NCBI RefSeq assembly: GCF_049060185.1 | Contig: NZ_JBMEQO010000002.1 | Length of the DNA: 64,000 nucleotides | Direction: 5' to 3' (one strand) | From: Nannocystis pusilla | GTDB lineage: Bacteria; Myxococcota_A; Polyangia; Nannocystales; Nannocystaceae | Part shown: positions 4,242 to 59,102 of the stretch, piece by piece | Layout of the letters: each line of letters begins with the position of its first letter | How positions within the stretch are numbered: position 1 is the stretch's first letter | Translations under genes and position numbers: made by a program | Notes under the pieces: generated by a model | The model's input: the letters and a program-made list of their open reading frames with translations, nothing else | Told to the model about the DNA's origin: nothing | The model's database searches: none

Positions 4242-5018
4242 ATGCCGGTCACCGGCACCGGCGCCCTCGTCACGCCGCCGCCCGACCTCGCGCCCGAGCT
4301 CCCGCCCGCGCCCGTCGAGCCGTGCGAGTCGCACGCGGTCGAGGCCGACTGCGACGCCGCCGGTTGCATCTGGTTCGCCACCGAGCGCCTCGCCGATCGC
4401 TCGACCTGCGCCTTCGAGGCCGCGGGCTTCTGCGCCACCGCCAGCGCCTCGACCGGCGACGAGGACTACGACTCCACCTTCTACAAGCGGGTCGGCGACG
4501 TCGTCCACGTCCGCCGCGTCGGTCGCAAGGCCGGCGACTTCCCCGGCCCCGAGCATCCCGCAGGCTGGACCGAGTGCGGCCTCGGCTCGCAGGACCCGGA
4601 GGCGTGCGCCTGCGTGTGCGCGGCCGGCCGCTGCCCGGGTGACATCGCCCTCGCGCTGCTCGACGCCTGCGCCTCGCCGCGCCCGTGCGACGACGAGGTC
4701 GCCGGCGACGCCTGCCTCTACCAGGCCCTCGCCGCCGAAGCCGCCGCCAGCCTCCGCGTCGAGAGCCTGGTCGGCACCCGCAACGTCGACGACCGCGTGT
4801 TCCTCCGCGGCGACGGCACCGCGACCTGGATGCGCAGCACCTGCGACCCGCGCGACACCAGCTGCCGCGATCGCAAGTGGGACCTGCCGCGCCTGTGCTC
4901 CCTGCGCGACCGCGCCGGCTTCCTCGCCTGCGCCGCCGCCGACCCGGCCGACCCGCAGTGCCGCGACGTGGCCGCCTGGTTCTCCGACTGCAAGCTGGCC
5001 CCCGCGACATGTCCGTGA
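4242..5018 (+). CDS. Cys-rich hypothetical protein (possibly secreted)
   Basis: A 258-aa ORF with about 20 Cys and balanced composition, unlike the R-rich shadow frames. No clear signal peptide could be resolved. The stop codon lies inside a palindrome unit (TGTCC-GTGA-GGACA). Confidence 0.4.
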   Translation: MPVTGTGALVTPPPDLAPELPPAPVEPCESHAVEADCDAAGCIWFATERLADRSTCAFEAAGFCATASASTGDEDYDSTFYKRVGDVVHVRRVGRKAGDFPGPEHPAGWTECGLGSQDPEACACVCAAGRCPGDIALALLDACASPRPCDDEVAGDACLYQALAAEAAASLRVESLVGTRNVDDRVFLRGDGTATWMRSTCDPRDTSCRDRKWDLPRLCSLRDRAGFLACAAADPADPQCRDVAAWFSDCKLAPATCP

Positions 5019-5310
5019 GGACAGCCACCGGGTGCGGGCTGCGAAGGTCCTGAACGACCTGTCTCATCGGACAGCTCGCGTCTCACGGTCGTCTGGCCGA
5101 GGCACCTCCGGGCGCGAACCGTCCGCGGCGCGGCCGACCGTGCCCCGCGCCGAGCTCGACCGGCCGATAGTTCGCCGCCCGGCACCCGACCGCCACCAGG
5201 GGCCGAACACCTCACGAAGGCGCCGATCGCCCGCGTTCCTCGTTCCCGCCGCCCGTCCGCGCGAAATCGCCCCTCGCACCTGCAGCACGACCTCGGCTAC
5301 CGTTCTCGCC

Positions 5311-7532: not shown

Positions 7533-7926
7533 ATGTCCCAAGAGACAGCCCCCAGGAACCTCACCGCCCGGATCCTCCGGCTCGTCGGCTACCTCACCGA
7601 CCCCAAGAGCGGCCCCGGCAAGTGGTGGATGCGCTTCGAGGGCGCCTCGACCGGCGTCATGACGCGCCTGGCCACGAGTCCGCGCTACCTCAAGTTCGCG
7701 GGCCGCGGGCTGCAGAAGATGTTCCACCTCCACCGCGACGTCGTCGACCTCACCGAGGAGATCCTGCACTTCTGGCGCGTGCCGACCCTCGGCGACTTCA
7801 ACGAGGTGCGGGCGCAGCTGCGGCGGGCCGAGGACCGGCTCGAGATCACCACCACCCAGCTCGAGCTCGCGCTCCAGCTGCTGGAGAAGCTGCAGGCCGA
7901 GCTGGCCCGCTCGGTCCGGGGGCCGC
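7533..7926 (+). CDS. Small PHA synthase subunit (PhaE / class IV PhaR-type)
   Basis: A ~130-aa ORF lies directly upstream of phaC. The segment VPTLGDFNEVRAQLRRAEDRLEITTTQLE resembles the PhaE/PhaR partner-subunit motif (PTRxD...A.L...E..VD...QLE). The exact end is unresolved. Confidence 0.55.
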
Positions 7927-14370: not shown

Positions 14371-14466
14371 GAATATGTCCCTGAGGACAGCCGAGAGCTC
14401 GGTAAATGTCCTCGGGGACATATCACTGTTCGCCCGGCGTCACGAAATCGCCTGTCCTCGAAGACA
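14371..14466. repeat. Three palindrome units (two perfect TGTCC-N4-GGACA) in the convergent intergenic region
   Basis: The units are TGTCCCTGAGGACA at 14376-14389, TGTCCTCGGGGACA at 14407-14420 and TGTCCTCGAAGACA at 14453-14466. The first overlaps the stop codon of the upstream gene. Confidence 0.8.
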
Positions 14467-17742: not shown

Positions 17743-18831
17743 GTGCAGGGCGGGGTGGCCACCGCCGACGTGGTCGTGTCCGCTCGGGTCGGCGACAACG
17801 CCGAGCTGTTCGCCCAGATCCTCGAGTTACATGTCCCGAAGGGCAGCACCGTCGCCGACGTCACTTACGGCCTCGGCGTGTTCTGGCGCCGCGTCCCCGA
17901 CGGGGTCTACACCCTGCTCGCCAGCGACATCGCCCTCAAGCCGGACGTCCCCGCGCGCGCCGGCGCGAAGCTGACGAGCGGCGTCGACTGCCGCGCCTTG
18001 CCGTACGCCGACGCGAGCCTCGACTGCGTCGTCCTCGACCCGCCGTACATGGAGGGCATGTACCGCCGCAGCGTCGACCACATGGCCGGCTCCGGCACCC
18101 ACGCCGCGTTCCGTCGCGCCTATTCGGCCGCCGCCGTCACCGAATCGGGCCCCAAGTGGCACGACGCAGTCGTCGACCTCTACGAAAAGGCCTGCCGCGA
18201 GGCCGCGCGCGTGCTCGTGCCGGGCGGCGTCCTGATCGTCAAGTGCCAGGACGAGGTCAGCGCCAACAAGCAGCGCCTCACCCACGTCGAGCTGATCACG
18301 GGCGGCGAGTCGCTCGGCCTCTACTGCAAGGACCTGTTCGTGCTCGTGCGCCCCAACAGCCCCGGGGTCAGCCGGCTCAAGGCCCAGGTCCACGCGCGCA
18401 AGAACCACTCCTACTTCCTCGTGTTCGAGAAGCGGCGCGTGGCGATCCGCAGCATCCGCGACTTCGCGGCCGGCGTCGACATGTCCGCAAGGACTGCCAC
18501 GGTCAGCCCCGAGAAACTGACCGAAGAGACAGGCACGGACCCGAGCAAGAAACAGCACAAAGTCGCCACCAAGCGCGCTACTGGCGATGGTCTGTCCTCC
18601 AGGACAGGCCCGTCGAAGGAGGCGCCGGCCGAGCCCGCGGCGGAGACCCTCGCGCAAGCCAGGGCCTCGAGCATGCGAGGGAACGCGAAGCCCGCCCAAG
18701 CGGAGATGTCCCAAAACCAGGTGCACCGGCACCTGCGACCCTACGCAGCGATCCGAGCGAGGCGCCCGCCATGGCTCATAGGTCCGTCGAGACAGGTGCA
18801 CACCAGGCCGAGCGACCACCGAGCACACTGA
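17743..18831 (+). CDS. Small DNA methyltransferase (N6_N4_Mtase family, DPPY motif). The ORF stays open through a motif-rich lower-GC tail, which may not be coding.
   Basis: The catalytic motif IV is in typical context: [17 protein letters not shown]. Downstream are LVPGGVLIV and the family-typical C-terminal HSYFLVFEK. The catalytic domain spans about 17743-18450. The frame then continues another ~130 codons through 6 or more palindrome units. Confidence 0.55.
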
Positions 18832-18870
18832 CGACTCGAGCTGTCACCGTCGATCTGTCCCTCGAGACAG
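18481..18870. repeat. Palindrome-unit-dense, lower-GC segment immediately 3' of the methyltransferase domain
   Basis: The units include ACATGTCCGCAAGGACTG, GAGACAGG, TCTGTCCTCCAGGACAGG (perfect), GATGTCCCAAAACC, GAGACAGG and TCTGTCCCTCGAGACAGC. Confidence 0.7.
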
Positions 18871-19174: not shown

Positions 19175-20580
<1,406 letters not shown>

Positions 20581-41723: not shown

Positions 41724-41920
41724 GCGCGAGCTCGGGTCGAACTGCTGAGCGCCGGAAGTTGCCATCGAGCGAGACGCCCTCGATCCACGTGAACGCCTGA
41801 GCGGCGTCGGTAGGCGGCTCGTCGTCAAAGCCTTCGTCCTTGTGGGCGGCCGTCTTCGAGGACGAGGGGCGCCGGTCTCGCTCGATGGGAGAGGCGTCGC
41901 CGCGGCGTCGGGCATGGTCG

Positions 41921-42070
41921 AAGGGACATGTCCTGGCGGTCATGCCTGACGCGTCCTGCGAGCGCGGCTGGAGACCCGGCCGAGGAGCTCACGGACATGA
42001 CCGAACAGACATGTCCAAATCGCCATGCTGCTTCGGGCATGTCTTCGAGGACATGCCCGAAGCGACAGGC
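41921..42070. repeat. Two adjacent tandem arrays of palindrome units between convergent genes
   Basis: The first run is GGGACA|TGTCCTGGCGGTCA|TGCCTGACGCGTCC. The second is GGACA|TGACCGAACAGACA|TGTCCAAATCGCCA|TGCTGCTTCGGGCA|TGTCTTCGAGGACA|TGCCCGAAGCGACA. Confidence 0.75.
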
Positions 42071-42072
42071 TC

Positions 42073-45000
42073 TCAGCTGCCGGCGGTGAAGTCCTCGCGG
42101 TTGCTGTCCCACCAGGCTTGCCAGGCGCGCAGGGCCAGCTCGCGGCTGCGGCGGTCGCCCTCGGCCGGGAACGGGATCCGCTGGCCGGTGATCCGCGCCA
42201 GCTCGTCGGCGGCCCAGCGGCGCACGGCCTCGTCGCGGTGGCGCAGGCCGTCGATGACCCACTCGATGCGCGGCTCCTGGCCGTGCTCGGCGTACCAGGC
42301 CCGCCAGCGCTGGGCGCGGTAGCCGTGGTGCTTGGCGGTGATCGAGCACAGGGCCTCGAGTGCGGCCTCGCGGACGTGCTTGTCGCGGACCGCCAGCAGG
42401 TCGATGAGGCGCGGCACTGCGAGGGTGTCGCGCAGCGTGCCGGCGGCCTCGACGGCGAGCAGCTGACGGTCGCGGTCCGAGCTCTCGAGCTCGCCGCGGA
42501 TCTCCGCGGCCACCGCCGCGAAGTCGGGCACGCGGCTGTAGGACTCGAGCACCCGGGTGGCGATCAGCCGCACGTCGGGGTCGGAGTCGAACGCCAGCTC
42601 GCCGAGTGGCCGCAGGCACTTCGGGTCGCGCAGCTCCTGGAACAGGAACGCGGCGTAGAAGCGGATCTGCGGCCGTGCGCTGGCGAACAGGGCGAGCACG
42701 TGCGGGCTGACCGCGTGGCCGAGCTCGACGCAGGCGCGCAGCAGCGGGCCGTGAGCGCTCGGCGGCGGGAAGTTGGTCGCGTTGGCGAGGTCGATGGGCC
42801 CGGGGAAGCGGGCGGCCAGGCGGGCCAGGCCGCGCTCGTCGAGCGCGCGCAGCCGCGACACGCTGGTCCACTCGGCCGGGTTCTGCAAAAAGTCCTCGAT
42901 CACCGCGTCGATCTCGCGGTCGTCGAGCGCCGCGCCAGAGGCGACCTCGGCGGCCGCGGCCGGCTCCTCGGTCGACGGCTCGTCGGCCGCGCGGCGCTCG
43001 TCGACCGGCGGGGCCGCGGCGGACCCGCTCGCCTCGTCGGCGCCGGCTGGCGCGCTCGAGTCGACCTGCGCTTCGGGACCGGTCTTGTGGGACATGTCCT
43101 CGGGAGCATGTTCCGAAGGGACGATCCCTCTCGCGGTCGACTGGGCCGCTGCCTCGTCGGCCTCGGCCTCGCGCACCAGCCGGGGCATGGTCAGGGCGCT
43201 GGACGAGGAGTCGGGGCGCGGGTCGTGCTTGCCGCGGCGCCGGCCGCTGCGCGGGCCGATCAGAGTGGTCGGCATCGACAGCGTGGGGCCGCCCTCGAGC
43301 TCGTCGGGGTCGCTGCGACGGGCCATCGGGTGCGGCGTGGCGGTGAGGCCGCCCGAGCGCCGCAGCGTCTTCGGGATCACCAGCACCGGCTCGTCCTCGT
43401 CCGGCTCGTTCGCGCGGCGACGGCGGCCCGCGCCGGGCGTGCCGGGCGGGGCGACCAGGTTGGGGATCAGGGTCTCGGGCGGGACCGGGGAGTCGACCCG
43501 CGGCAGGTCGAGGACGGTCTTGGCGTCGGGCGCGGCGCGGGTCTCGACCAGCAGCGGCTCGTGGGTCGGAGGCGGCGAGAGGTCGAGGATGGTCGGGGTG
43601 TCGGAGGCGGCGCGCGGCCACTCGTCGAACTCGTCGCGCGTGGATGTGGATGACCGCGTGGTCTCCTCGAGCACCACCCGCGGCGCGCCCGGCAGCGTCG
43701 CCGCCGGATCGTGGTCGACGCGGGCCGCGGCGGCGGTCGCGGCCGAGCGCAGCGCCGCGGCCACGGGCAGCGGGTCCTCGATGCCCGACGGTTCGGCGGT
43801 GGCGATCCAGCCCGGCATCTCCGGCTGCGGGCTCGCCGGCGGCGCCTCGGGGCTGTCCGATCGCGCATGTCCGAAGGTATTGGGCCGATCGGACAGGTCG
43901 ATCGTCACCGCCGGCAGCGGCGGCTTGGTGAACATCGCGGCGAAGCGGGCCACGAGCGGGCTGTCCTGGCCGTTCTCGGGGCCGAGCGGCACGGGGACCG
44001 GGGCGAGGCCGAGACCGGGGCCGTCGCGGCGCGGCGGCGGGCTGTCGGGCTCGTCGGGGTCGTCGGTGAGGTCCTCGTACTCCGGCTCGTCGGACGGGGG
44101 CGGCGGCTCGTCCGCGAGCGTCTGGGCCCGCACGAGCGCGGAGCTCTCGGCGCGGACCGGCAGCGGCGTCACGGTCGCCGGGTCGTCGCGGCGGATCGGG
44201 TTCTTCAGGGTGATGACGGCGCGTCCGCGGTTGCCGCGGCTGCGCAGCCGGCTGGCGAGGCTGTTGCTGTCCCCGAAGCCAGGTTCACTCGCCGCGCCGC
44301 TCGCGGTCGGCGGCGACTCGGGCTCGTCGGGTTCGGCCGAGCTCTCGGCGGCCGGCGCCTCGGGCTCGCTCTCGGAGCTGTCCGCAGAGACAGGTGGTGT
44401 CGTGGCCGGCGCGTCGGCCTCGTCGATGGTGACGATCGGGGTCGCCGGCCGGATCGACGGCCGCGTGCGGTCGGCCGGGCCGGCCCCGGGCGTGCCGCCG
44501 GGCACCACCCAGCCGAGCAGCCGCAGCAGCGCCTCGAGGCTCTGGCGGGCCGTGTCGCACAGCTCGCGCAGGACGGTCCGCTCGCGCGGATCGAAGGCGA
44601 CGCCGGAGCGGTCGAGGTAGAGCATCAGCACGGTGCGGCCGCCGGCGAGCACGGGCTCGAAGATGCAGGGGATCCCCAGCGGCTGGCCGACGGCGAACGA
44701 CAGGCTCGGCTCGATCAGGAGGTGCAGCGGTCCCTGGCCCGACACTGCGCGATCGAGCAGGCCGCCCTCGGGCAGCGGGATGACGAGGCCCTCGGACATC
44801 CGCAGCGCGCTGCCGGGCGCGGCCAGGACGCGCAGACCCTCGCGCTTGACCCCGAACAGGGCCACGCGGGGCGCGATCAGGCTGGAGGCCCGCACCAAAG
44901 CCTCGGTGATCCGGTCGCGCTCGCGCGCGGTGGCCAGAGTGGCGCGAGCGGCGTCGAGGCGCTGCGCCAGAGTCATGACCATCGGCTGCGGCAGGGCCGG

Positions 45001-47402
45001 CGGCTTGCGCGTCGACGACTCGACCCGATCCTCGTCGGACACGGCCTCGGGGGCGCCCGGCGCGGCCTCCGGAGAGCTGGCCGAAGGGACAGGCGGGCTC
45101 GGCGCGGGCTCGGCGGGGCTGACCGGAGGGACAGGTGTGCCCGGCGCGGGCTCGACGGGGCTGGCCGAAGGGACAGGCGGGCTCGGCGCGGGCTCGGCGA
45201 GGCTGACCGGAGGGACAGGTGTGCCCGGCGCGGTCGTGGAGCGAGCGACGCCGTTGCTGGGGCCGTGCGCGGACGCGGGCTTGTCGGCGGCGGGGGCGGG
45301 GGCGGGGGCGGGCGCCACGCCGACGGGGATGCCGACGAGGGTGCGCCTGTCCCAATTGCCAGACGAGGTGTCCGAATAGATGGGCACCCCGAGGGCCGGA
45401 GTCACCGGTCGCGGGGTGGTCGCCGGCGGCAGGATGATGAGCGGCGTGTCAGGGGCGATGGCCATCGCCGCCAGCGAGGCGTTCTGGTCCTCGAAGCCGC
45501 CCGGGTCGATGAGCGGGGCGTCCGGGGCGACGGGGACGGGCGAGGGCCGCGTCGACGGCCGTTTGGCGGGGGCAGCGGAATCGGGCTCGGGCGCCCGGGA
45601 GTCGTAGGCAGCCGTCTGGCGGCTCGCCGCGGCGGCAGGCGTGGGGGCGGTTTCGGTCCGGCGTCCCGTGGCGGCGTGGCCCGGGGTATCGAGCTGAGGT
45701 GACCTGGTCTCGGAGACAGGTGTTGCCTCCGGCGCAGGCGCGCGGCCGGAGGATGGGGCCGAGGCGTTCGCGGCGGAGCTGTCCGCGGGGACAGGTGCGG
45801 ACGGGGCAGTGACGCTCGGTGCTGCGGCGCGGCTGTCCTCAGGGACAGATGCGGCAGCAGGGGCCGACGCCGGCGCCGGCGTCGCGGTGCGGGTCGCGGC
45901 GGCCCGGTCCGCGGCGAGTTCGTCGGAGGCGCGAGGCGCGTTGGCGCGAGCGTCCGAGTCGGTCGCCGGCGAGCCGGCGAGAGCGGGGACGAACCCGCGG
46001 CGAGCGCGGGACCGTTCGCCGGGCGGGCCCGGTCCGCGTCGATGGCCGCGTCGCGGCTGTCCTTGAGTGCAGGTGCGAGCGACTCGCTCGGCCTGTCCCC
46101 GGGGACATGCGCCGTCGCGGCGGCGTCGTCGGGCGTGCCCGACCGCGGCGAGCCGGCCTCCGACGGCGAGGCGCCGGACGGCGAACCCGTCGCGCGCGCC
46201 GCGGTGTTCGGCCCGGACATCGCCGCCGGGCGCGGGCCGGCCATCTGCCTGTCCGATGGGACAGGTACGTCGGCCTGCAGCGCGTCGGCCAGCGACGGTC
46301 GCGCGCCCGCGGTCGCCTCGTCCATCGTGACAGGGGCGGTCTGCGTGTCTTCTGCGGCGTCGGCCTTCGGGGTGGCGGCAGGCCTGGCCTCGTCCACCTT
46401 CGCGTCGATGGCGGACCTGTCCGCCGGGACAGGCGCGTCCGCATGACCGGCGGCGACCTGGCCGCTCGCGGATTTGTCGGCGCGCGACGAACCGAAGGCA
46501 GGACCTCCGGCCTCGACCTCGACCCCGTGACTGGCGGCGGCCGTGTCGGGGCGACGGGCCGGGGCGCCTGCCCCTGGCTCGCGTCGGGCTGGGCCGCCGG
46601 GCCCTCGCCAGCGCTCGGCGCGTCAGCGTTGCGAGCGTCGACCGGCGTGTTCGCGCCGGACGGCTCCGATCCGGCGTCGGCCTGCGACCTGTCCGCAGGG
46701 ACAGCCGCATCGGCGCCGCGGGCATCGGCCGGCTGCCTGTCCGCGGGGACAGGCGCCCCCTCGCGCGCCTCGGCTGTCGGCCTGTCCGGGACAGCTGCCT
46801 CGGCGCGGGCTTCCGTCGGCTGCCTGTCTGATGAGACAGGTGCGTCGGCCGACCGCCTGTCCGCAGGGACAGCCGCCTCGCTCGGCCGCGGCTCGGCGGC
46901 GCCCGGCACCAGGCTGATCGTGATCGAGGCGGTGCGCAGCGCCTCGAGGTAGTCGAGCAGGATCAGCGCGTAGCGCGGGGCGAGGATCGAGCCGGTGCGC
47001 TCGGCGGCGATCTTGGCCAGGCAGCACTCGGGCGCGACGACCGGGTAGAAGCCGCGGACCATGCGGTAGAGCTGGCCGAGCTTGGCGTCGGGCAGGTCGG
47101 GGTGGACGGCGACGATCAGCCGGCCGTCCTCCTGCGCGAGCGGCATGGCCCAGCCGATGTCGACCAGGTCTCTCGGGACATGTTCCCAGGGACGGGTCGG
47201 CCCGCGCTCGAGCAGCCGCACCGGCGCGCCGGGAGGCCGCAGGCGCTCTGCAGCAGGGCGTCGAGCTGCAGCGGGGTCATCAGCCCGAGCTCGAGGATCG
47301 CGGTGTCGAGGCTGCCGCCGGCCAGCTGCTGCCGCCGGGTCGCGGCCTCGAGATCGGCGCGCGACAGCGGGCCGTTGGCTTCGAGGTGGCGCAGGAGGAG
47401 GC
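42073..47402 (-). CDS. Giant multidomain protein (~1770 aa). Its domains, in order, are: two N-terminal GspE-N/MshEN-like domains, long Pro/Ala/Asp-rich tandem repeats, a GAF-like domain, acidic/Pro-rich linkers, and C-terminal HEAT (PBS-lyase-type) repeats. It has at least one frame switch near 46800-47200.
   Basis: The N-terminus is VSLLLRHLEANGPLSRADLEAATRRQQLAGGSLDTAILELGLMTPLQLDALLQ. It is followed by MRLLERGPTRPWEHVPRDLVDIGWAMPLAQEDGRLIVAVHPDLPDAKLGQLYRMV. The middle has a GAF-like block MVMTLAQRLDAARATLATARERDRITEALV... The C-terminus has HEAT repeats ...DPDVRLIATRVLESY...VRDKHVREAALEAL...DEAVRRWAADELARI. The GTG start overlaps the stop of the upstream RDD gene. Confidence 0.55.
46089..46875. 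repeat. Coding tandem repeat of 33-48 bp units, each beginning with a TGTCC-N4-GGACA palindrome
   Basis: The units are CCTGTCCGCAGGGACAGCCGC..., CCTGTCCGCGGGGACAGGCGCC..., CCTGTCCGGGACAGCTGCC..., CCTGTCTGATGAGACAGGTGCG... and CCTGTCCGCAGGGACAGCCGCC. They encode the protein repeat AVPADR(Q/S)(P/A)(T/A)(E/D)A... Confidence 0.75.
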
Positions 47403-48002
47403 TCACTGTTCCCTCACGACGTAGGTGCCTGTCAGGTAGTCGTGGAAGGCCCGCTTCTCGCGGTCGAAGGCCATCCACAGCGAGCCGAGGCCGCCGGGCA
47501 CCAGGCCGACGGCGGTGCCCGCGAAACGCACCGTCGCGCGCACCGGACCGACTTTGCCGCCGGCGCGGTGGACCACGCGGATCCCGGTGAGCTTCTGCCC
47601 GGGTGTCCTTCCGGACAGGGCGATGAAGAGCACGAAGTAGAACGCGACCATCACCAGGAGCGGCGCCAGCCACACCAGGATCTCGAGCGGGTCGACGGTC
47701 AAGAGCTGGAGCAGACCGGCCCACGAGAAGGCGCCGCGCACCGGGCTCGCGTCACCGATCACGCGCTGCAGCCCGAGGTGCAGCGGGCCGGCGGTGACGA
47801 GCAGGATCGCGGCGTCGACCACCGCGGCGGCGAGGCGACGCCAGAAGCCGGCGACGCGCACCGGCACCAGCGCTTGCCCGCACGCCGGGCACGTCGGTTG
47901 CCCGTCCTTGACGAGGCCGATGTCCAGCGCCGCGTCGCAGCTCGGACACGGTGCGGGTCGCTCCTTGCGGGACCAAAACGCCATCGGCGCGCACCATAAC
48001 AC
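47403..48002 (-). CDS. RDD-family membrane protein with an N-terminal zinc-ribbon
   Basis: The zinc ribbon is CPSCDAALD...CPACGQ. The RDD-domain signature RTPGQKLTGIRVV is present, with TM segments. Confidence 0.7.
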   Translation of the reverse strand: MLWCAPMAFWSRKERPAPCPSCDAALDIGLVKDGQPTCPACGQALVPVRVAGFWRRLAAAVVDAAILLVTAGPLHLGLQRVIGDASPVRGAFSWAGLLQLLTVDPLEILVWLAPLLVMVAFYFVLFIALSGRTPGQKLTGIRVVHRAGGKVGPVRATVRFAGTAVGLVPGGLGSLWMAFDREKRAFHDYLTGTYVVREQ

Positions 48003-48056
48003 GGCCCCGGGCCTCCCGGTCCGTCCCCGCGCGGCGCGGCGGGTCCCCGCCGGCGC

Positions 48057-48743
48057 TCAGGCGAACATCACGCGAGCGACAGCGACCAGCGCCGCCGTCT
48101 CGGTGCGCAGCGTGTAGGGCCCGAGGCCGAGCGCGCGGAAGCCCGCGGCGCGCAGCAGCGCCGCCTCCTCGGGGTAAACCCACCCTCGGGCCCCACGCAC
48201 ACACGAGCACCCGCGGTGACCGCCGGCGCGTCGCTCGATGTCGCGCGCAGCTCCTCCCACGCGAACAAGCCGGGGAGGTCGGTGCGCCGGTACGTGGCCT
48301 CGCGGAGATCGACGGGTCCCGAGATCGCGGGCGCGCGGGGCCTGCCGCACTGCCGTTGCGCCGCTCGCAGCACCCGCGCGATCCGTTCGCCGCCGGGCGC
48401 CGCGCCCTGGCTGCGGGCGCAGCGGACCAGCACGACCTCGGCGACGCCGATCTCGCACAGCGCGGGGAGGACGTCCAGCACGGTGGCCGGCTCCGGCATG
48501 CCGAGCAAGACCACGACCTCGCGCGCGGGGCCGGCACCGTTCGTTGCTCGAGCAACTTCACGGTGGTGCCGCGCGCGTCGCCGCCGACGACCTCGGCCAG
48601 CCACAGCGCGCCGTGGTCGTCGATCGCCTCGATGCGCGCGCCGTCGCCGACCCGGCGGACCCGCCGGAGGTAGTGCGACTCGGCGGCGTCCAGGTCGACG
48701 CGCGCCGGGTCGGCCGGCGCGCCCACGAACACCCGCGTGCTCA
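48057..48743 (-). CDS. rsmE: 16S rRNA (uracil1498-N3)-methyltransferase RsmE. It is frameshifted and spans 3 frames.
   Basis: The sequence reads MSTRVFVGAPADPARVDLDAAESHYLRRVRRVGDGARIEAIDDHGALWLAEVV, then ...VVLLGMPEPATVLDVLPALCEIGVAEVVLVRCARSQ..., then ...GPYTLRTETAALVAVARVMFA. Confidence 0.8.
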
Positions 48744-49709
48744 TCCGGCCGCTCGCAGGACCAGCGCGCACCACTCGGCGAGGTCGCGGCGGTCGGCGAG
48801 CGCCAGCCCGGCCGCGGTGTAGGCGGCGAGCACGTCCTCGGCCTCCTCGCCGAGCACGCCGCTGAGGACGACGGCGCCGCCGGGGGCGAGGCGGCGGGCG
48901 AGGTCGCCGGCGATCGGGATCAGCACGCCGGGGCGGATGTTGGCGAGGATCAGATCGAAGCTGTCCGAAAGTTCCAAGACGGTCGCGGCCCGGATCTCGA
49001 GCCGGTCTTCTAGTTTGTTGGCGGCGGCGTTCTCGGCGGTGGTGTCGGCGGCCTCGGGATCGTTGTCGGCGGCGACCACCGCGGCCTGCGGGAACAGCCG
49101 CGCCGCCGCGAGGGCCAGGATGCCGGAGCCGCAGCCGAGGTCGAGCACGCGGTCGGGGCGCGCGCCGGCCTCGGCGAGGGCGACCAGCAGCTCCAGGCAC
49201 AGCCGCGTGGTCTCGTGCTGGCCGGTGCCGAAGGCGCGGCCGGGATCGAGGACCAGCTCGAGCTCCGGGTCGCCGGGCCGGCGATCGATCCAGCTCGGCC
49301 GCACCAGCAGCGTCGTCGTCGCGGCCGAGAACACCAGCGGCGCGTAGAACTGCTTCCACGTGTCGCGCCAGTCGTCGTCGGTGCGCACCGCCGGGGTCAG
49401 CCGCAGCGGCAGGAGCAGGTCGGCGCCGAGCCGCTCGACCTCGGCGATGAGGCCTTCGAGGCCGTCCGGGGTGGTGTAAATCGTCAACTCGGGGATCTCG
49501 CACCGACTGCCGAGCGTCGAGGTGTCCCGCGTCTCCACGCCCGCAGCGCGCGGGTCTTCGGCGATCAGCGTCGCCAGCGCCTCGAGCCGCTCCGACGCCT
49601 CGGTCAGCTCGCCGAGGTCGAGGCCCTCGCCGTCGTCGTCGGACCGGCCGCGGAGCTGGACCAAAAGCGTCGCCCACGGTTCGGCGGTCGTCTCTGCTGT
49701 CTCACGCAT
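48741..49709 (-). CDS. prmA: Ribosomal protein L11 methyltransferase PrmA
   Basis: An intact 322-aa ORF. The motifs RAFGTGQHETTRLCLELL, VLDLGCGSGILALAA and NDPEAADT are present. Confidence 0.9.
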   Translation of the reverse strand: MRETAETTAEPWATLLVQLRGRSDDDGEGLDLGELTEASERLEALATLIAEDPRAAGVETRDTSTLGSRCEIPELTIYTTPDGLEGLIAEVERLGADLLLPLRLTPAVRTDDDWRDTWKQFYAPLVFSAATTTLLVRPSWIDRRPGDPELELVLDPGRAFGTGQHETTRLCLELLVALAEAGARPDRVLDLGCGSGILALAAARLFPQAAVVAADNDPEAADTTAENAAANKLEDRLEIRAATVLELSDSFDLILANIRPGVLIPIAGDLARRLAPGGAVVLSGVLGEEAEDVLAAYTAAGLALADRRDLAEWCALVLRAAG

Positions 49710-52898: not shown

Positions 52899-52950
52899 AA
52901 CATGTCCTCGAGAGCATGCCCTCGAGGACATGTTCTTGAGAGCATGCTCG
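52897..52950. repeat. Gap-free array of 4 palindrome units with exact 14-bp periodicity between convergent genes
   Basis: The array reads GAACA|TGTCCTCGAGAGCA|TGCCCTCGAGGACA|TGTTCTTGAGAGCA|TGCTCG. It begins one nt after the stop of the DUF1963 gene. Confidence 0.85.
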
Positions 52951-56465: not shown

Positions 56466-56548
56466 TCATGGCATGTCCTTCACGGCATGTTGTGAAGAAC
56501 ATGGTGACATGGACATGTCTCTACGGGCATGTCCATGCGGGCATGCCG
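56466..56548. repeat. Tandem array of ~6 palindrome units in an intergenic region
   Basis: The array reads TGGCA|TGTCCTTCACGGCA|TGTTGTGAAGAACA|TGGTGACATGGACA|TGTCTCTACGGGCA|TGTCCATGCGGGCA|TGCC. Confidence 0.75.
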
Positions 56549-57986: not shown

Positions 57987-59102
57987 TCACAGGCGACCGA
58001 CGGAGCGGGCCCACGCGACTGTGTGCTCGAGCCCTCGCGCGAGCGGCCAAAGTGGGGCGTACTCGAGCTCGCGCACGGCCCGGCTGTCGTCGCACCACCA
58101 GCCCGGCGCCATGCTGCCGCGGGCCTTGTCGAGGGTCAGCGCGGGGGCCTTGCCGCGCAGGCGGCCGATCGCGTGGTTGATGCCGGCGACGGTCCACACC
58201 GCGGCCTGCGGCATCGGCAGCGCGAGCGCCCGCCGGCCGAGCGCCGCGGCGGCGGCCCGGCCGAACTCGACGACGGTGCTACGCTGGCCGTCGGTCAAGT
58301 AGTAGATGCCGGCGCCGGCGGGTGAGAGATGTCCTCGGGGACATGGTCGAAGGGGCTGCCTTGATCGGCGAGCACGTGCTCGCCGTCGCGGGGATCGGGC
58401 AACCGCGAGCGCCGGCGCGGGCGATGCCCTCGACGAGATCGAGGGCGTGGATGAAGGACATCCACGCGGGGCGCAGGCCGGGCTGGGCGATCACCCCGAA
58501 CTTGGCGGAGCGGATCATCTGCAACATGTCGAGGTCGCGCGGGCCGTAGACCGCCGGCGGACGCACGATCACCGCCTCGACGTCGCCGGTGCGCGCGGCC
58601 GCGAAGACCAGCCGCTCGCCGTCGAGCTTGCTGTCGCCGTAGAGCGTGTAGCCGACGCGCGGGGCGTGGTGCTCACGCCGCGCGACCTCCGGGTGCGACG
58701 GGCCGGCGGCCATCAACGACGACACGTAGACGAGCCGCCGCGGCCGTCGCGGGCCTGGCGGATCGCCGCGAGCACGTTGGCGACGCCGGCCGCGTTGGCC
58801 CGCGCGAACTCGTCGCGGGTGAACGCGGCGGTCAGGCCGGCCACGTGATAGACGGTGTCGACGCCGTCGAACGCGGCCGCCATCGCGTCGACGTCGGACA
58901 GCGACGCGCGCACGAGCTCGGGCTGCGCGTCGGTCCGCGCGAGCGCGTCGGCGAGGTTGTCGAGGTTGGCGCTGGCGCGGACCATCGCCCTCACGTCGTC
59001 GCCGCCCGCGAGCAGACGATCGACGAGGTGACTGCCGATGAAGCCGTTCGCGCCGGTGACGAGGACCTTCGTGCGCACGAAGCGGGGATTACCCACCGCC
59101 AT
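57987..59102 (-). CDS. NAD-dependent epimerase/dehydratase. It is frameshifted and carries a palindrome-unit insert-like segment.
   Basis: The N-terminus KVLVTGANGFIGSHLVDRLL has the GxxGxxG motif. YGDSK (YxxxK) is present. The C-terminus is in a third frame. Confidence 0.75.

Follow-up and report, generated by a model that had tools for sequence, protein, structure and literature searches.

In a 64,000-nucleotide stretch of Nannocystis pusilla DNA (contig NZ_JBMEQO010000002.1; hereafter the window), we focused on a short palindrome that recurs in the gene for a giant protein, and we describe it here as a feature of the DNA and not of the peptide that it encodes. The giant protein has a conserved N-terminal domain, long disordered linkers, a central domain, and C-terminal HEAT repeats. 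The N-terminal domain carries the UniRef name GspE N-terminal-like, and Pfam recognised the HEAT repeats and nothing else. Unbroken orthologues of 1673-1840 aa are present in Nannocystis spp., with identities of 95% for Nannocystis sp. ILAH1, 81-86% for N. pusilla, and 58-67% for the three species N. punicea, N. bainbridge and N. radixulma. In the window, a plot of G+C content at third codon positions (GC3) showed that the coding frame of the gene switches three times, near 47233, 46570 and 46000, and joining the four frame pieces gave a reconstructed protein of 1778 aa. An earlier note on this DNA, made from the letters alone, had treated 42073-47402 as a single open frame; that does not hold, because the gene starts with a GTG at 47406 and three frame changes are needed to read through it.

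The giant gene and its palindromic units

According to the earlier note, each repeat in the linkers began with CCTGTCC-N4-GGGACAG. That sequence has no match in the window, and neither has the core CTGTCC-NNNN-GGGACAG, which we rejected. The spacing had been miscounted, and the true unit is CTGTCC-N4-GGACAG, with a family core of TGTCC-N4-GGACA. On the coding strand the unit reads (G/C)CT GTC CCn nnG GAC AG(G/C), giving the peptide (A/P)-V-P-x-D-(R/S). Of all 6-bp-arm inverted repeats in the window, CTGTCC with a 4-nt loop occurs most often. CTGTC-N(1-12)-GACAG has 15 matches compared with 1.1 expected, 11 of them inside the giant gene, and the family core with at most one mismatch has 48 matches compared with 1.83 expected, a number reached in none of 100 shuffles. 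Region 45060-46900, to which the note had assigned the repeats and their palindromes, does contain both, far above chance, with 12 units at one mismatch or fewer and two variants. The linkers of the giant protein are the densest unit site of the window, at ~7 units per kb.

Two arrays account for many of these units (Table 1). The first, in linker 1, encodes the AVPADR-type repeat that had been reported, as (A/P)-V-P-A-D-R. That every repeat is headed by the palindrome was borne out, with corrections. Five units stand at the reported spacing; the unit at 46782 has a loop of a single nucleotide, and the one at 46824 has altered inner bases. Compared with its counterpart in Nannocystis sp. RBIL2 (L006), the nearest compared genome (nucleotide identity 89-95%), the unit at 46782-46794 has lost 3 bp of its loop and can no longer form a hairpin for that reason; the change is in frame and replaces AVPGDR by AVPDR. 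Tandem Repeats Finder (TRF) gave no tandem repeat at 46680-46900, because only the palindrome is similar from unit to unit. The second block is a true tandem repeat that alternates GAAGGGACAGG and GGAGGGACAGG, as had been noted, with either 4.3 copies of period 42 or 2.1 copies of period 84 (TRF). It encodes PVPPVS(L/P)AEPAPSPPVPSASPVEPAPGT twice, and its GGGACAGG motifs form part of one-mismatch palindromes, TGGCC or TGACC ... GGACA. Further units stand singly. Several of the single-unit sites in linker 1 hold their position across species while their loops differ, and the linker-2 unit is kept in both L006 and a second related genome, L001.

Just past the stop codon of the giant gene lies a perfect hairpin that shares the unit core, with a folding energy of -26.7 kcal/mol (z = -7.3). 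It is present at the equivalent place in L001, L006 and L004, and it is probably the 3'-end hairpin or terminator of the giant gene. The intergenic unit further downstream is a member of a chain of CATGTCC/GGACATG half-sites that spans 41915-42063.

The frame changes raise the question of assembly quality. Between 37000 and 57500 (21 kb compared), comparison with L006 and with L001 revealed isolated 1-bp deletions in the window, their positions identical for the two genomes and their rate ~1 per 1-1.5 kb. Such a spread is typical of a long-read assembly that has not been polished. Against the unbroken L006 gene, the giant gene of the window is missing a single base in a C run at 47233, another at 46570, and 10 bp at 45984, and these three frame changes are most likely assembly errors. 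Programmed frameshifting was rejected as their source, given that the orthologues are intact and that 1-bp deletions occur throughout the window. Many other genes of the window are expected to look frameshifted, its assembly being apparently error-prone. An error-prone assembly with three frame-changing indels in the very gene could also have collapsed or expanded the repeat block, and exact copy numbers in the window could be off. Even so, the same arrays are found in the same place in at least seven independent Nannocystis assemblies and several metagenomes, and they measure at most 180 bp, well below read length. We therefore regard an assembly artefact, which the earlier note had named as the outcome that would overturn its claim, as an extremely improbable origin of the repeats.

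Table 1. Positions of the giant gene, its palindromic units, and related features in the window
Feature	Position	Strand	Detail
Giant-protein gene	42073..47406	minus	GTG start at 47406; GC3 frame plot and reconstruction
First array, linker 1	46689..46872	minus	five units 33-48 bp apart
First-array unit	46857-46872	minus	encodes AVPADR
First-array unit	46824-46839	minus	CTGTCT..AGACAG, inner bases changed yet palindromic; PVSSDR
First-array unit	46782-46794	minus	CTGTCC-C-GGACAG, 1-nt loop; AVPDR
First-array unit	46737-46752	minus	PVPADR
First-array unit	46689-46704	minus	AVPADR
Dispersed single units, linker 1	45779..46432	minus
Linker-1 single unit	46417-46432	minus	PVPADR
Linker-1 single unit	46249-46264	minus	PVPSDR; adjoins conserved AGPRPAAMSGP
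Linker-1 single unit	46093-46108	minus	HVPGDR
Linker-1 single unit	45833-45848	minus	SVPEDS
Linker-1 single unit	45779-45794	minus	PVPADS
Second block, tandem repeat	45055..45233	minus	TRF score 312, 93% matches
Second-block one-mismatch units	45077-45092, 45119-45134, 45161-45176, 45203-45218	minus
Single unit, linker 2	44378..44393	minus	sense CTGTCT..GGACAG; PPVSADSS
Perfect 34-nt hairpin, 14-bp stem	42030..42063	minus	GCTTCGGGCATGTC-TTCGAG-GACATGCCCGAAGC; 10 nt past giant-gene stop
Intergenic unit downstream of giant gene	41928..41943	unassigned (.)	CATGTCC..GGTCATG
Groups of copies outside the giant gene	14376/14407/14453; 5010/5060; 250/264; 41929/42040
CATGTCC-N4-GGACATG clusters, non-coding-like	250-277, 5010-5073, 14376-14466, 18482-18869, 41915-42063, 52917-52930, 56515-56543, 58330-58343
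1-bp deletions, examples	52295, 52188, 51450, 49923, 49774, 48530, 48174, 47233, 41160, 40806, 39486, 39065, 38218

Codon constraint, reading frames and copy number

We compared the number of units with the number expected if the protein alone were maintained. Synonymous codons were resampled with weights taken from genome codon usage, as estimated from ~110 kb of confident coding DNA. The window protein yielded 0.02 perfect units on resampling, compared with 8 observed, and four intact orthologues yielded 0.001-0.02, compared with 1-10 perfect units (4-11 by a relaxed pattern). In the genome, GCT has a usage of 4%, CCT of 6%, AGG of 5% and CAT of 12%. Among the 13 units of the window gene, the codon that precedes Val always ends in T, and Asp is followed by AGG (6 units) or AGC (7 units). 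Units in the orthologues have a like codon pattern; in a few, Asp is followed by ATG or ATC. The rare codons (CCT/GCT, AGG) are fixed at paired arm positions only, and loop positions vary freely. At the site D-V-P-V-P-S-D-R-Q-M-A-G-P-R-P-A-A-M-S-G-P, six of seven genomes keep GTA CCT GTC CCn nCG GAC AGG, with the loop alone varying, and other units of the giant gene are likewise held at orthologous positions across species. Because the arms are kept, the loops vary and the codons are rare, the arms must be held against strong GC3 pressure. With these results, we conclude that the palindrome is a nucleotide-level feature, not a by-product of the peptide.

The seventh genome, N. punicea (L002), retains V-P-I-P-A-D-R-Q at the same site as GTG CCG ATC CCC GCC GAC CGG; here the palindrome is gone and all codons have gone back to common ones. 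Persistence of the peptide after loss of the palindrome is what one would expect of an ordinary short linear motif, P-V-P-x-D-R/S, duplicated for multivalent binding, with the palindrome a legacy of inherited codons, and the motif does recur in the linkers of the giant-protein family across a wide clade. We nevertheless consider this explanation very unlikely. The resampling and the restriction of rare codons to paired positions both speak against it; in addition, the identical palindrome is present in intergenic DNA and is read in other frames in other genes (see below). For the same reasons of resampling, fixed rare codons and three reading frames, we rejected a repeat acting at the peptide level, with synonymous codons free, as the general cause.

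Copy number varies among strains, which had been proposed as a comparison worth making. The first array has five units in the window, five in Nannocystis sp. ILAH1, six in N. pusilla genome a, ~10 in N. pusilla genome b, and four in N. punicea. The second block has four units in the window, three in ILAH1 and two in genome a; it was not scored in genome b, and in N. punicea a different 21-aa repeat of ~6 copies takes its place. In the N. radixulma/SCPEA4 group, the entire 200-aa segment with the first array is absent. The orthologues bear the linker with the same palindromes, a further comparison that had been suggested. With a TRF block at 45055-45233, strain-variable counts and spacings in multiples of three, the locus has the properties of a variable-number coding tandem repeat.

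We found similar arrays in homologues of the giant protein and in unrelated genes. The gene order prmA - rsmE (PUA_4/Methyltrans_RNA) - RDD-family protein - giant HEAT protein (47403-49677 in the window; also L009-L011) extends from Nannocystis to distant Myxococcota, and at annotated loci the RDD gene stop and the giant gene start overlap by 4 nt. A megablast search of a plasmid database with the giant gene gave no match. Two metagenome loci with this gene order, L009 and L010, carry 18 and 13 units in the giant gene, nearly all in frame 0, in arrays such as APVPTDSPDTSS and APVPRDSSDPTD. At the most distant homologue locus, L011 (a metagenome-assembled genome, MAG, of Myxococcota with 69% G+C), there are no TGTCC-N4-GGACA units; it has three copies of GGCATG-N5-CATGCC, which may be a different palindrome family of that lineage.

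We then scanned metagenome contigs for two units 8-38 bp apart, which at least 120 contigs contained. Among the matches listed, most contigs have 70-78% G+C, and open reading frames (ORFs) passing strict criteria hold at least 212 units in at least 62 ORFs. There, 129 units are in frame 0 (PVPxDS, AVPEDR), 55 in frame 2 (DLSPGT) and 28 in frame 1 (TCPRGQ), and the spacing between units is a multiple of three in 127 of 130 cases. Periods of the coding arrays are 21, 27, 36 or 48 bp. Host proteins are unrelated to one another; among them are a Cu+-P-type ATPase, Ser/Thr kinases, of which one has WD40 repeats, a Clp-like AAA+ protein, MoeA and TPR proteins. A single ORF of 2205 codons (L024 329-6943, minus strand) has arrays in two frames, GLSEGTG in frame 2 and AVPEDRS in frame 0. 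In the Cu+-exporting P-type ATPase (L118 3-1388), an insert of D-L/M-S-x-G-T units is the palindrome read in frame 2. This insert has ~1-9 units and occupies the same position across the Nannocystis clade; it is absent in a Longimicrobiales outgroup. The best similarity of the ATPase is to proteins labelled Nannocystis sp. MAGs (81% identity). A tblastn search with window proteins for the taxon of the metagenome contigs gave paralogue-level matches only, and the ATPase search was used for the assignment instead. We conclude that the unit is independent of the peptide, as one DNA sequence is translated in three frames in unrelated proteins.

Some details of these arrays call for care. GC3 frame calls are locally unreliable inside linkers, and we used intact orthologue ORFs and the strict ORF criteria in their place. 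Some frame-1 arrays are doubtful: the array in L100 lies upstream of the probable true start, and P0017 is a frameshifted copy of P0012. Both of the latter are metagenome homologues of the giant protein, and the stretch RCTCPRGQPVHRCTCPRGQ... in P0017 is the +1 reading of the APALRDSPPAD repeats of P0012; public protein sets thus do contain frameshifts or miscalls inside arrays. A 17-bp period (a unit plus 1 nt) is seen in arrays at L023 9737-9870 and L027 8892-8974, in DNA with a weak coding signature; if translated, these arrays would run through three frames every 51 bp. An unrelated contig of 41% G+C (L025 928-1110) has a 30-bp tandem repeat with a CTGTCCTCGAGGACAG palindrome and one inverted copy in mid-array; this match is probably coincidental.

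Dispersed copies and the shape of the unit

Approximately 31 of the 48 matches in the window lie outside the giant gene. Many of these have the form CATGTCC-N4-GGACATG, are paired or tripled, and stand in DNA without a coding signature (Table 1). Neighbouring copies of this form often abut, with a 14-bp period, or stand 30-110 bp apart. Intergenic DNA of related genomes carries the same palindrome. When flanks of related genomes were added to the window, we counted 108 units in 168 kb. Unit density is 1.64 per kb where the DNA is non-coding-like and 0.34 per kb where it is strongly coding-like, compared with ~0.03 per kb by chance. The frequency of the family in Nannocystis proper is ~1 per 1.5 kb, an estimate of dispersal that covers ~0.2 Mb of Nannocystis DNA.

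Spacing within the unit is strict: when spacings of 0-30 were counted, 91 of 95 inverted pairs had N4. A position frequency matrix of 216 half-sites gave the consensus GGACA[T/G]G[Y]nC. To the left of the core stands C or A and to its right G or T, the whole dyad usually measures 16-22 bp, and directly abutting units build head-to-tail arrays of 14-bp period. Outside the giant gene, the two flank types of half-sites (A or C) combine independently. Covariation of H...M (CAT...ATG), suspected from the peptides, was rejected as the result of context heterogeneity. Units fold as hairpins of 7 bp closed by a tetraloop, with energies of -9 to -11 kcal/mol, and longer perfect hairpins built on the family core occur at 3' ends. 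TTCG/CGAA and GGAA/TTCC loops are over-represented in non-coding units (5 of 35 in the window alone). We rejected the possibility that the central 4 bp continue a perfect duplex palindrome (29 observed compared with 33.9 expected; 21 compared with 29.5). Degenerate copies mostly have non-pairing mismatches.

Several units overlap the beginnings of probable genes. The ATG of ATGTCC-N4-GGACAGCC units is in frame with long, high-GC3 ORFs at 7533, 19268 and 29453 (also 7978 and 62124), which begin M-S-x-R/E-T-A; AAGGAG is found just upstream at 19268. A start codon inside a hairpin or dyad suggests that these units may exert translational or transcriptional control.

Taken together, we are highly confident of conservation at the nucleotide level, dispersal in the sampled regions, translation in three frames, copy-number variation, and spacings in multiples of three. 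That a DNA-level element shapes the protein sequence, the central claim of the earlier note, is upheld by the codon resampling, the orthologous site, the intergenic copies and the three-frame reading. The note had offered two routes, expansion of the repeat through the units or accumulation of units in a tolerant low-complexity linker. The first agrees with the variable copy number and the array periods, the second with the excess of units in non-coding-like over strongly coding DNA; both are supported, and they are compatible.

To explain these observations, we propose that a clade-specific palindromic family, resembling repetitive extragenic palindromic (REP) sequences and bacterial interspersed mosaic elements (BIMEs), colonised tolerant coding DNA and expands there by tandem duplication. 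We hold this reading to be somewhat probable. Under it, the TGTCC-N4-GGACA family, which is found in Nannocystis and its near relatives, would live mostly between genes in Nannocystis proper, as pairs, arrays and 3'-end hairpins, with some copies in coding DNA. Survivors in coding DNA would stand mostly in harmless frames (x-V-P/L/S-x-D-R/S in frame 0, D-L/M-S-x-G/R-T in frame 2), the frame that contains Cys being the rarest, and would gather in segments of weak coding signature, namely disordered linkers and surface loops. A unit and its short spacer would then be amplified by tandem duplication in multiples of 3 bp, giving repeat peptides of variable copy number, with the expansions presumably driven by hairpin-assisted replication slippage. 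As the linkers of the giant gene are the densest unit site, the AVPADR-type repeat would therefore be a translation by-product of a nucleic-acid element. A more tentative part of the proposal, which we place a little short of probable, is a mechanism like that of REPs, in which a sequence-specific factor recognises the dyad or the hairpin and thereby spreads or maintains the units. Such a factor is implied by the conservation of sequence without signs of selection on structure alone, as set out below.

A proposed REP-like family and its alternatives

REP sequences, or palindromic units, with their BIME arrays are the nearest known class. We say that the unit works like a REP family and do not file it as a member. 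Like the REP/BIME elements of Enterobacteria and Pseudomonas, the units are short, sequence-conserved, lineage-specific palindromes that, in Nannocystis proper, appear to lie mostly at 3' ends and between genes, form clustered arrays of strain-variable copy number, and occur now and then in ORFs. REPs inside ORFs, including clusters that encode 43-82 aa, have been described (Di Nocera et al. 2013, PMC3733652). REPs number thousands per genome, and the Nannocystis rate, taken from ~0.2 Mb sampled, may amount to a similar number. The dyads fold into stem-loops, some copies reaching 34 nt, at the short end of the REP range. In Nannocystis proper the units are dispersed and enriched in non-coding-like DNA; the giant-gene units are intragenic. 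In contrast to REPs, for which in-frame coding arrays are rare, such arrays are regular in the Nannocystis family, and the unit is shorter (16-22 bp compared with 20-40 bp) with a strict 4-nt loop.

Three other classes share part of this behaviour. Rickettsia palindromic elements (RPEs), which are 100-150 bp long and occur as single insertions, are said to have been found by Ogata et al. (2000) to insert in frame in protein-coding genes. In both cases a palindromic DNA repeat enters functional proteins at permissive positions, and selfish or neutral DNA makes peptide segments. The Nannocystis units differ from RPEs in that they are 16-22 bp long, are amplified in tandem, are read in three frames, and belong to Myxococcota, in a free-living host with an ~11-13 Mb genome of 72% G+C. 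RPEs are also mentioned in the REP literature (PMC3733652). The highly iterated palindrome HIP1 (GCGATCGC) of cyanobacteria (PMC5861425, PMC4390886) resembles the unit as a clade-specific palindrome that is hyper-abundant inside and outside coding DNA, holds its orthologous sites in the face of codon preference, and long had no known function. HIP1 is a contiguous 8-mer of different sequence, is linked to orphan methyltransferases and lacks tandem arrays, whereas the unit is a split dyad with hairpin potential. Ordinary coding tandem repeats made by slippage resemble the unit arrays in being multiples of three, strain-variable and confined to low-complexity linkers; they differ in that here only the palindrome is conserved between diverged copies, and that it is present in intergenic DNA and unrelated genes as well. 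A literature search for palindromic, REP or tandem repeats of Nannocystis or myxobacteria found nothing specific.

Several observations weigh against a REP-like family that colonised tolerant DNA. In L007, L009 and L010, units are dense in the giant gene and nearly absent from its 12-17 kb flanks, and such gene-only density fits a gene-specific function better than passive colonisation; either the element is undispersed in these lineages or the giant gene is a host of a special kind. Units are long conserved at orthologous sites, and no recent mobility is evident. The units are shorter than classical REPs. The tetranucleotide GTAG or CGTC that tags REP ends (PMC3733652) is absent from the unit ends out to 32 nt (216 half-sites). 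No gene resembling the REP-associated tyrosine transposase (RAYT, of the Y1/HUH type) was found by tblastn with an E. coli RayT sequence in 0.98 Mb, a weak and uninformative negative, as RAYT genes are usually single-copy. Within the stem core, compensatory covariation is not significant (6 compensated pairs compared with 9.2 in shuffles). The sense strand shows no bias of G.U over A.C (21 compared with 16), and selection on the structure itself is therefore not demonstrable. Finally, a double-stranded binding site would account no less well for the strict N4 spacing and the independent half-sites.

The last points lead to an alternative in which the dyads are duplex sites bound by a dimeric, sequence-specific protein of the host (a global regulator, nucleoid-associated protein or LexA-like repressor, for example), and the intragenic arrays are functional multi-site platforms under selection. 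CTGT-N8-ACAG has the geometry of an E. coli-type SOS box. The sequence-defined core with its fixed spacing, the free combination of A and C flanks, the lack of both covariation and strand-specific G.U bias, the head-to-tail arrays of 14-bp period, the overlap of several units with probable start codons or 5' regions, and the long conservation at orthologous sites would all suit such a protein. Against it, ~1 unit per 1.5 kb is far above an ordinary regulon, strain-variable tandem arrays of 5-20 sites in unrelated coding regions are not expected of operators, the central 4 bp lack self-complementarity, with stable tetraloops enriched among them, and many units lie within longer perfect hairpins at 3' ends. 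We consider a duplex site unlikely. A site of the CRP/MrpC type, which has TGT-N10-ACA, was rejected on spacing, which here is TGT-N8-ACA.

Units could also be hairpins in the mRNA of the giant gene and of others that hold back ribosomes between domains, shield the transcript or are bound by an RNA-binding protein, and are kept by selection on RNA structure. Each unit has a stable 7-bp tetraloop fold, non-coding units are enriched in UUCG- and GNRA-type loops, related but longer hairpins are found past stop codons, and in distant relatives the units concentrate in the giant-gene family and not in its flanks. What we observed in the stems is conservation of sequence without covariation, and degenerate units are mostly non-pairing, with G.U no commoner than A.C on the sense strand. 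In addition, the fold of the 226-nt array region is no more stable than those of shuffled sequences (z = -1.65), and Rfam, applied to the whole window with gathering thresholds, yielded no family. We judge mRNA hairpins to be a quite improbable explanation.

A bolder form of the REP-like reading is possible but doubtful. In it, a previously undescribed system, consisting of a 16-22 bp hairpin or dyad and a putative dedicated factor, would seed and amplify in-frame coding arrays and generate linkers and surface loops genome-wide, with the giant GspE_N-HEAT protein as its oldest and densest host. Co-option of the giant-gene arrays, perhaps into a regulatory or length-tuning module, is conceivable too, since the arrays persist there in lineages whose flanks are free of the element.

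If a REP-like family did colonise tolerant coding DNA, then a nucleic-acid repeat, and not protein selection, would write recurrent peptides such as P-V-P-x-D-S and D-L-S-x-G-T into many unrelated bacterial proteins, among them the giant protein, a Cu-ATPase, kinases and Clp-like ATPases. This would provide a concrete mechanism for the birth and fast length change of disordered linkers in large GC-rich genomes, and would advise caution in taking such repeats as functional protein motifs. The variable copy number would be a ready marker for strain typing, and TGTCC-N4-GGACA would be a sharp target for finding the factor that recognises or spreads the element in Myxococcota.

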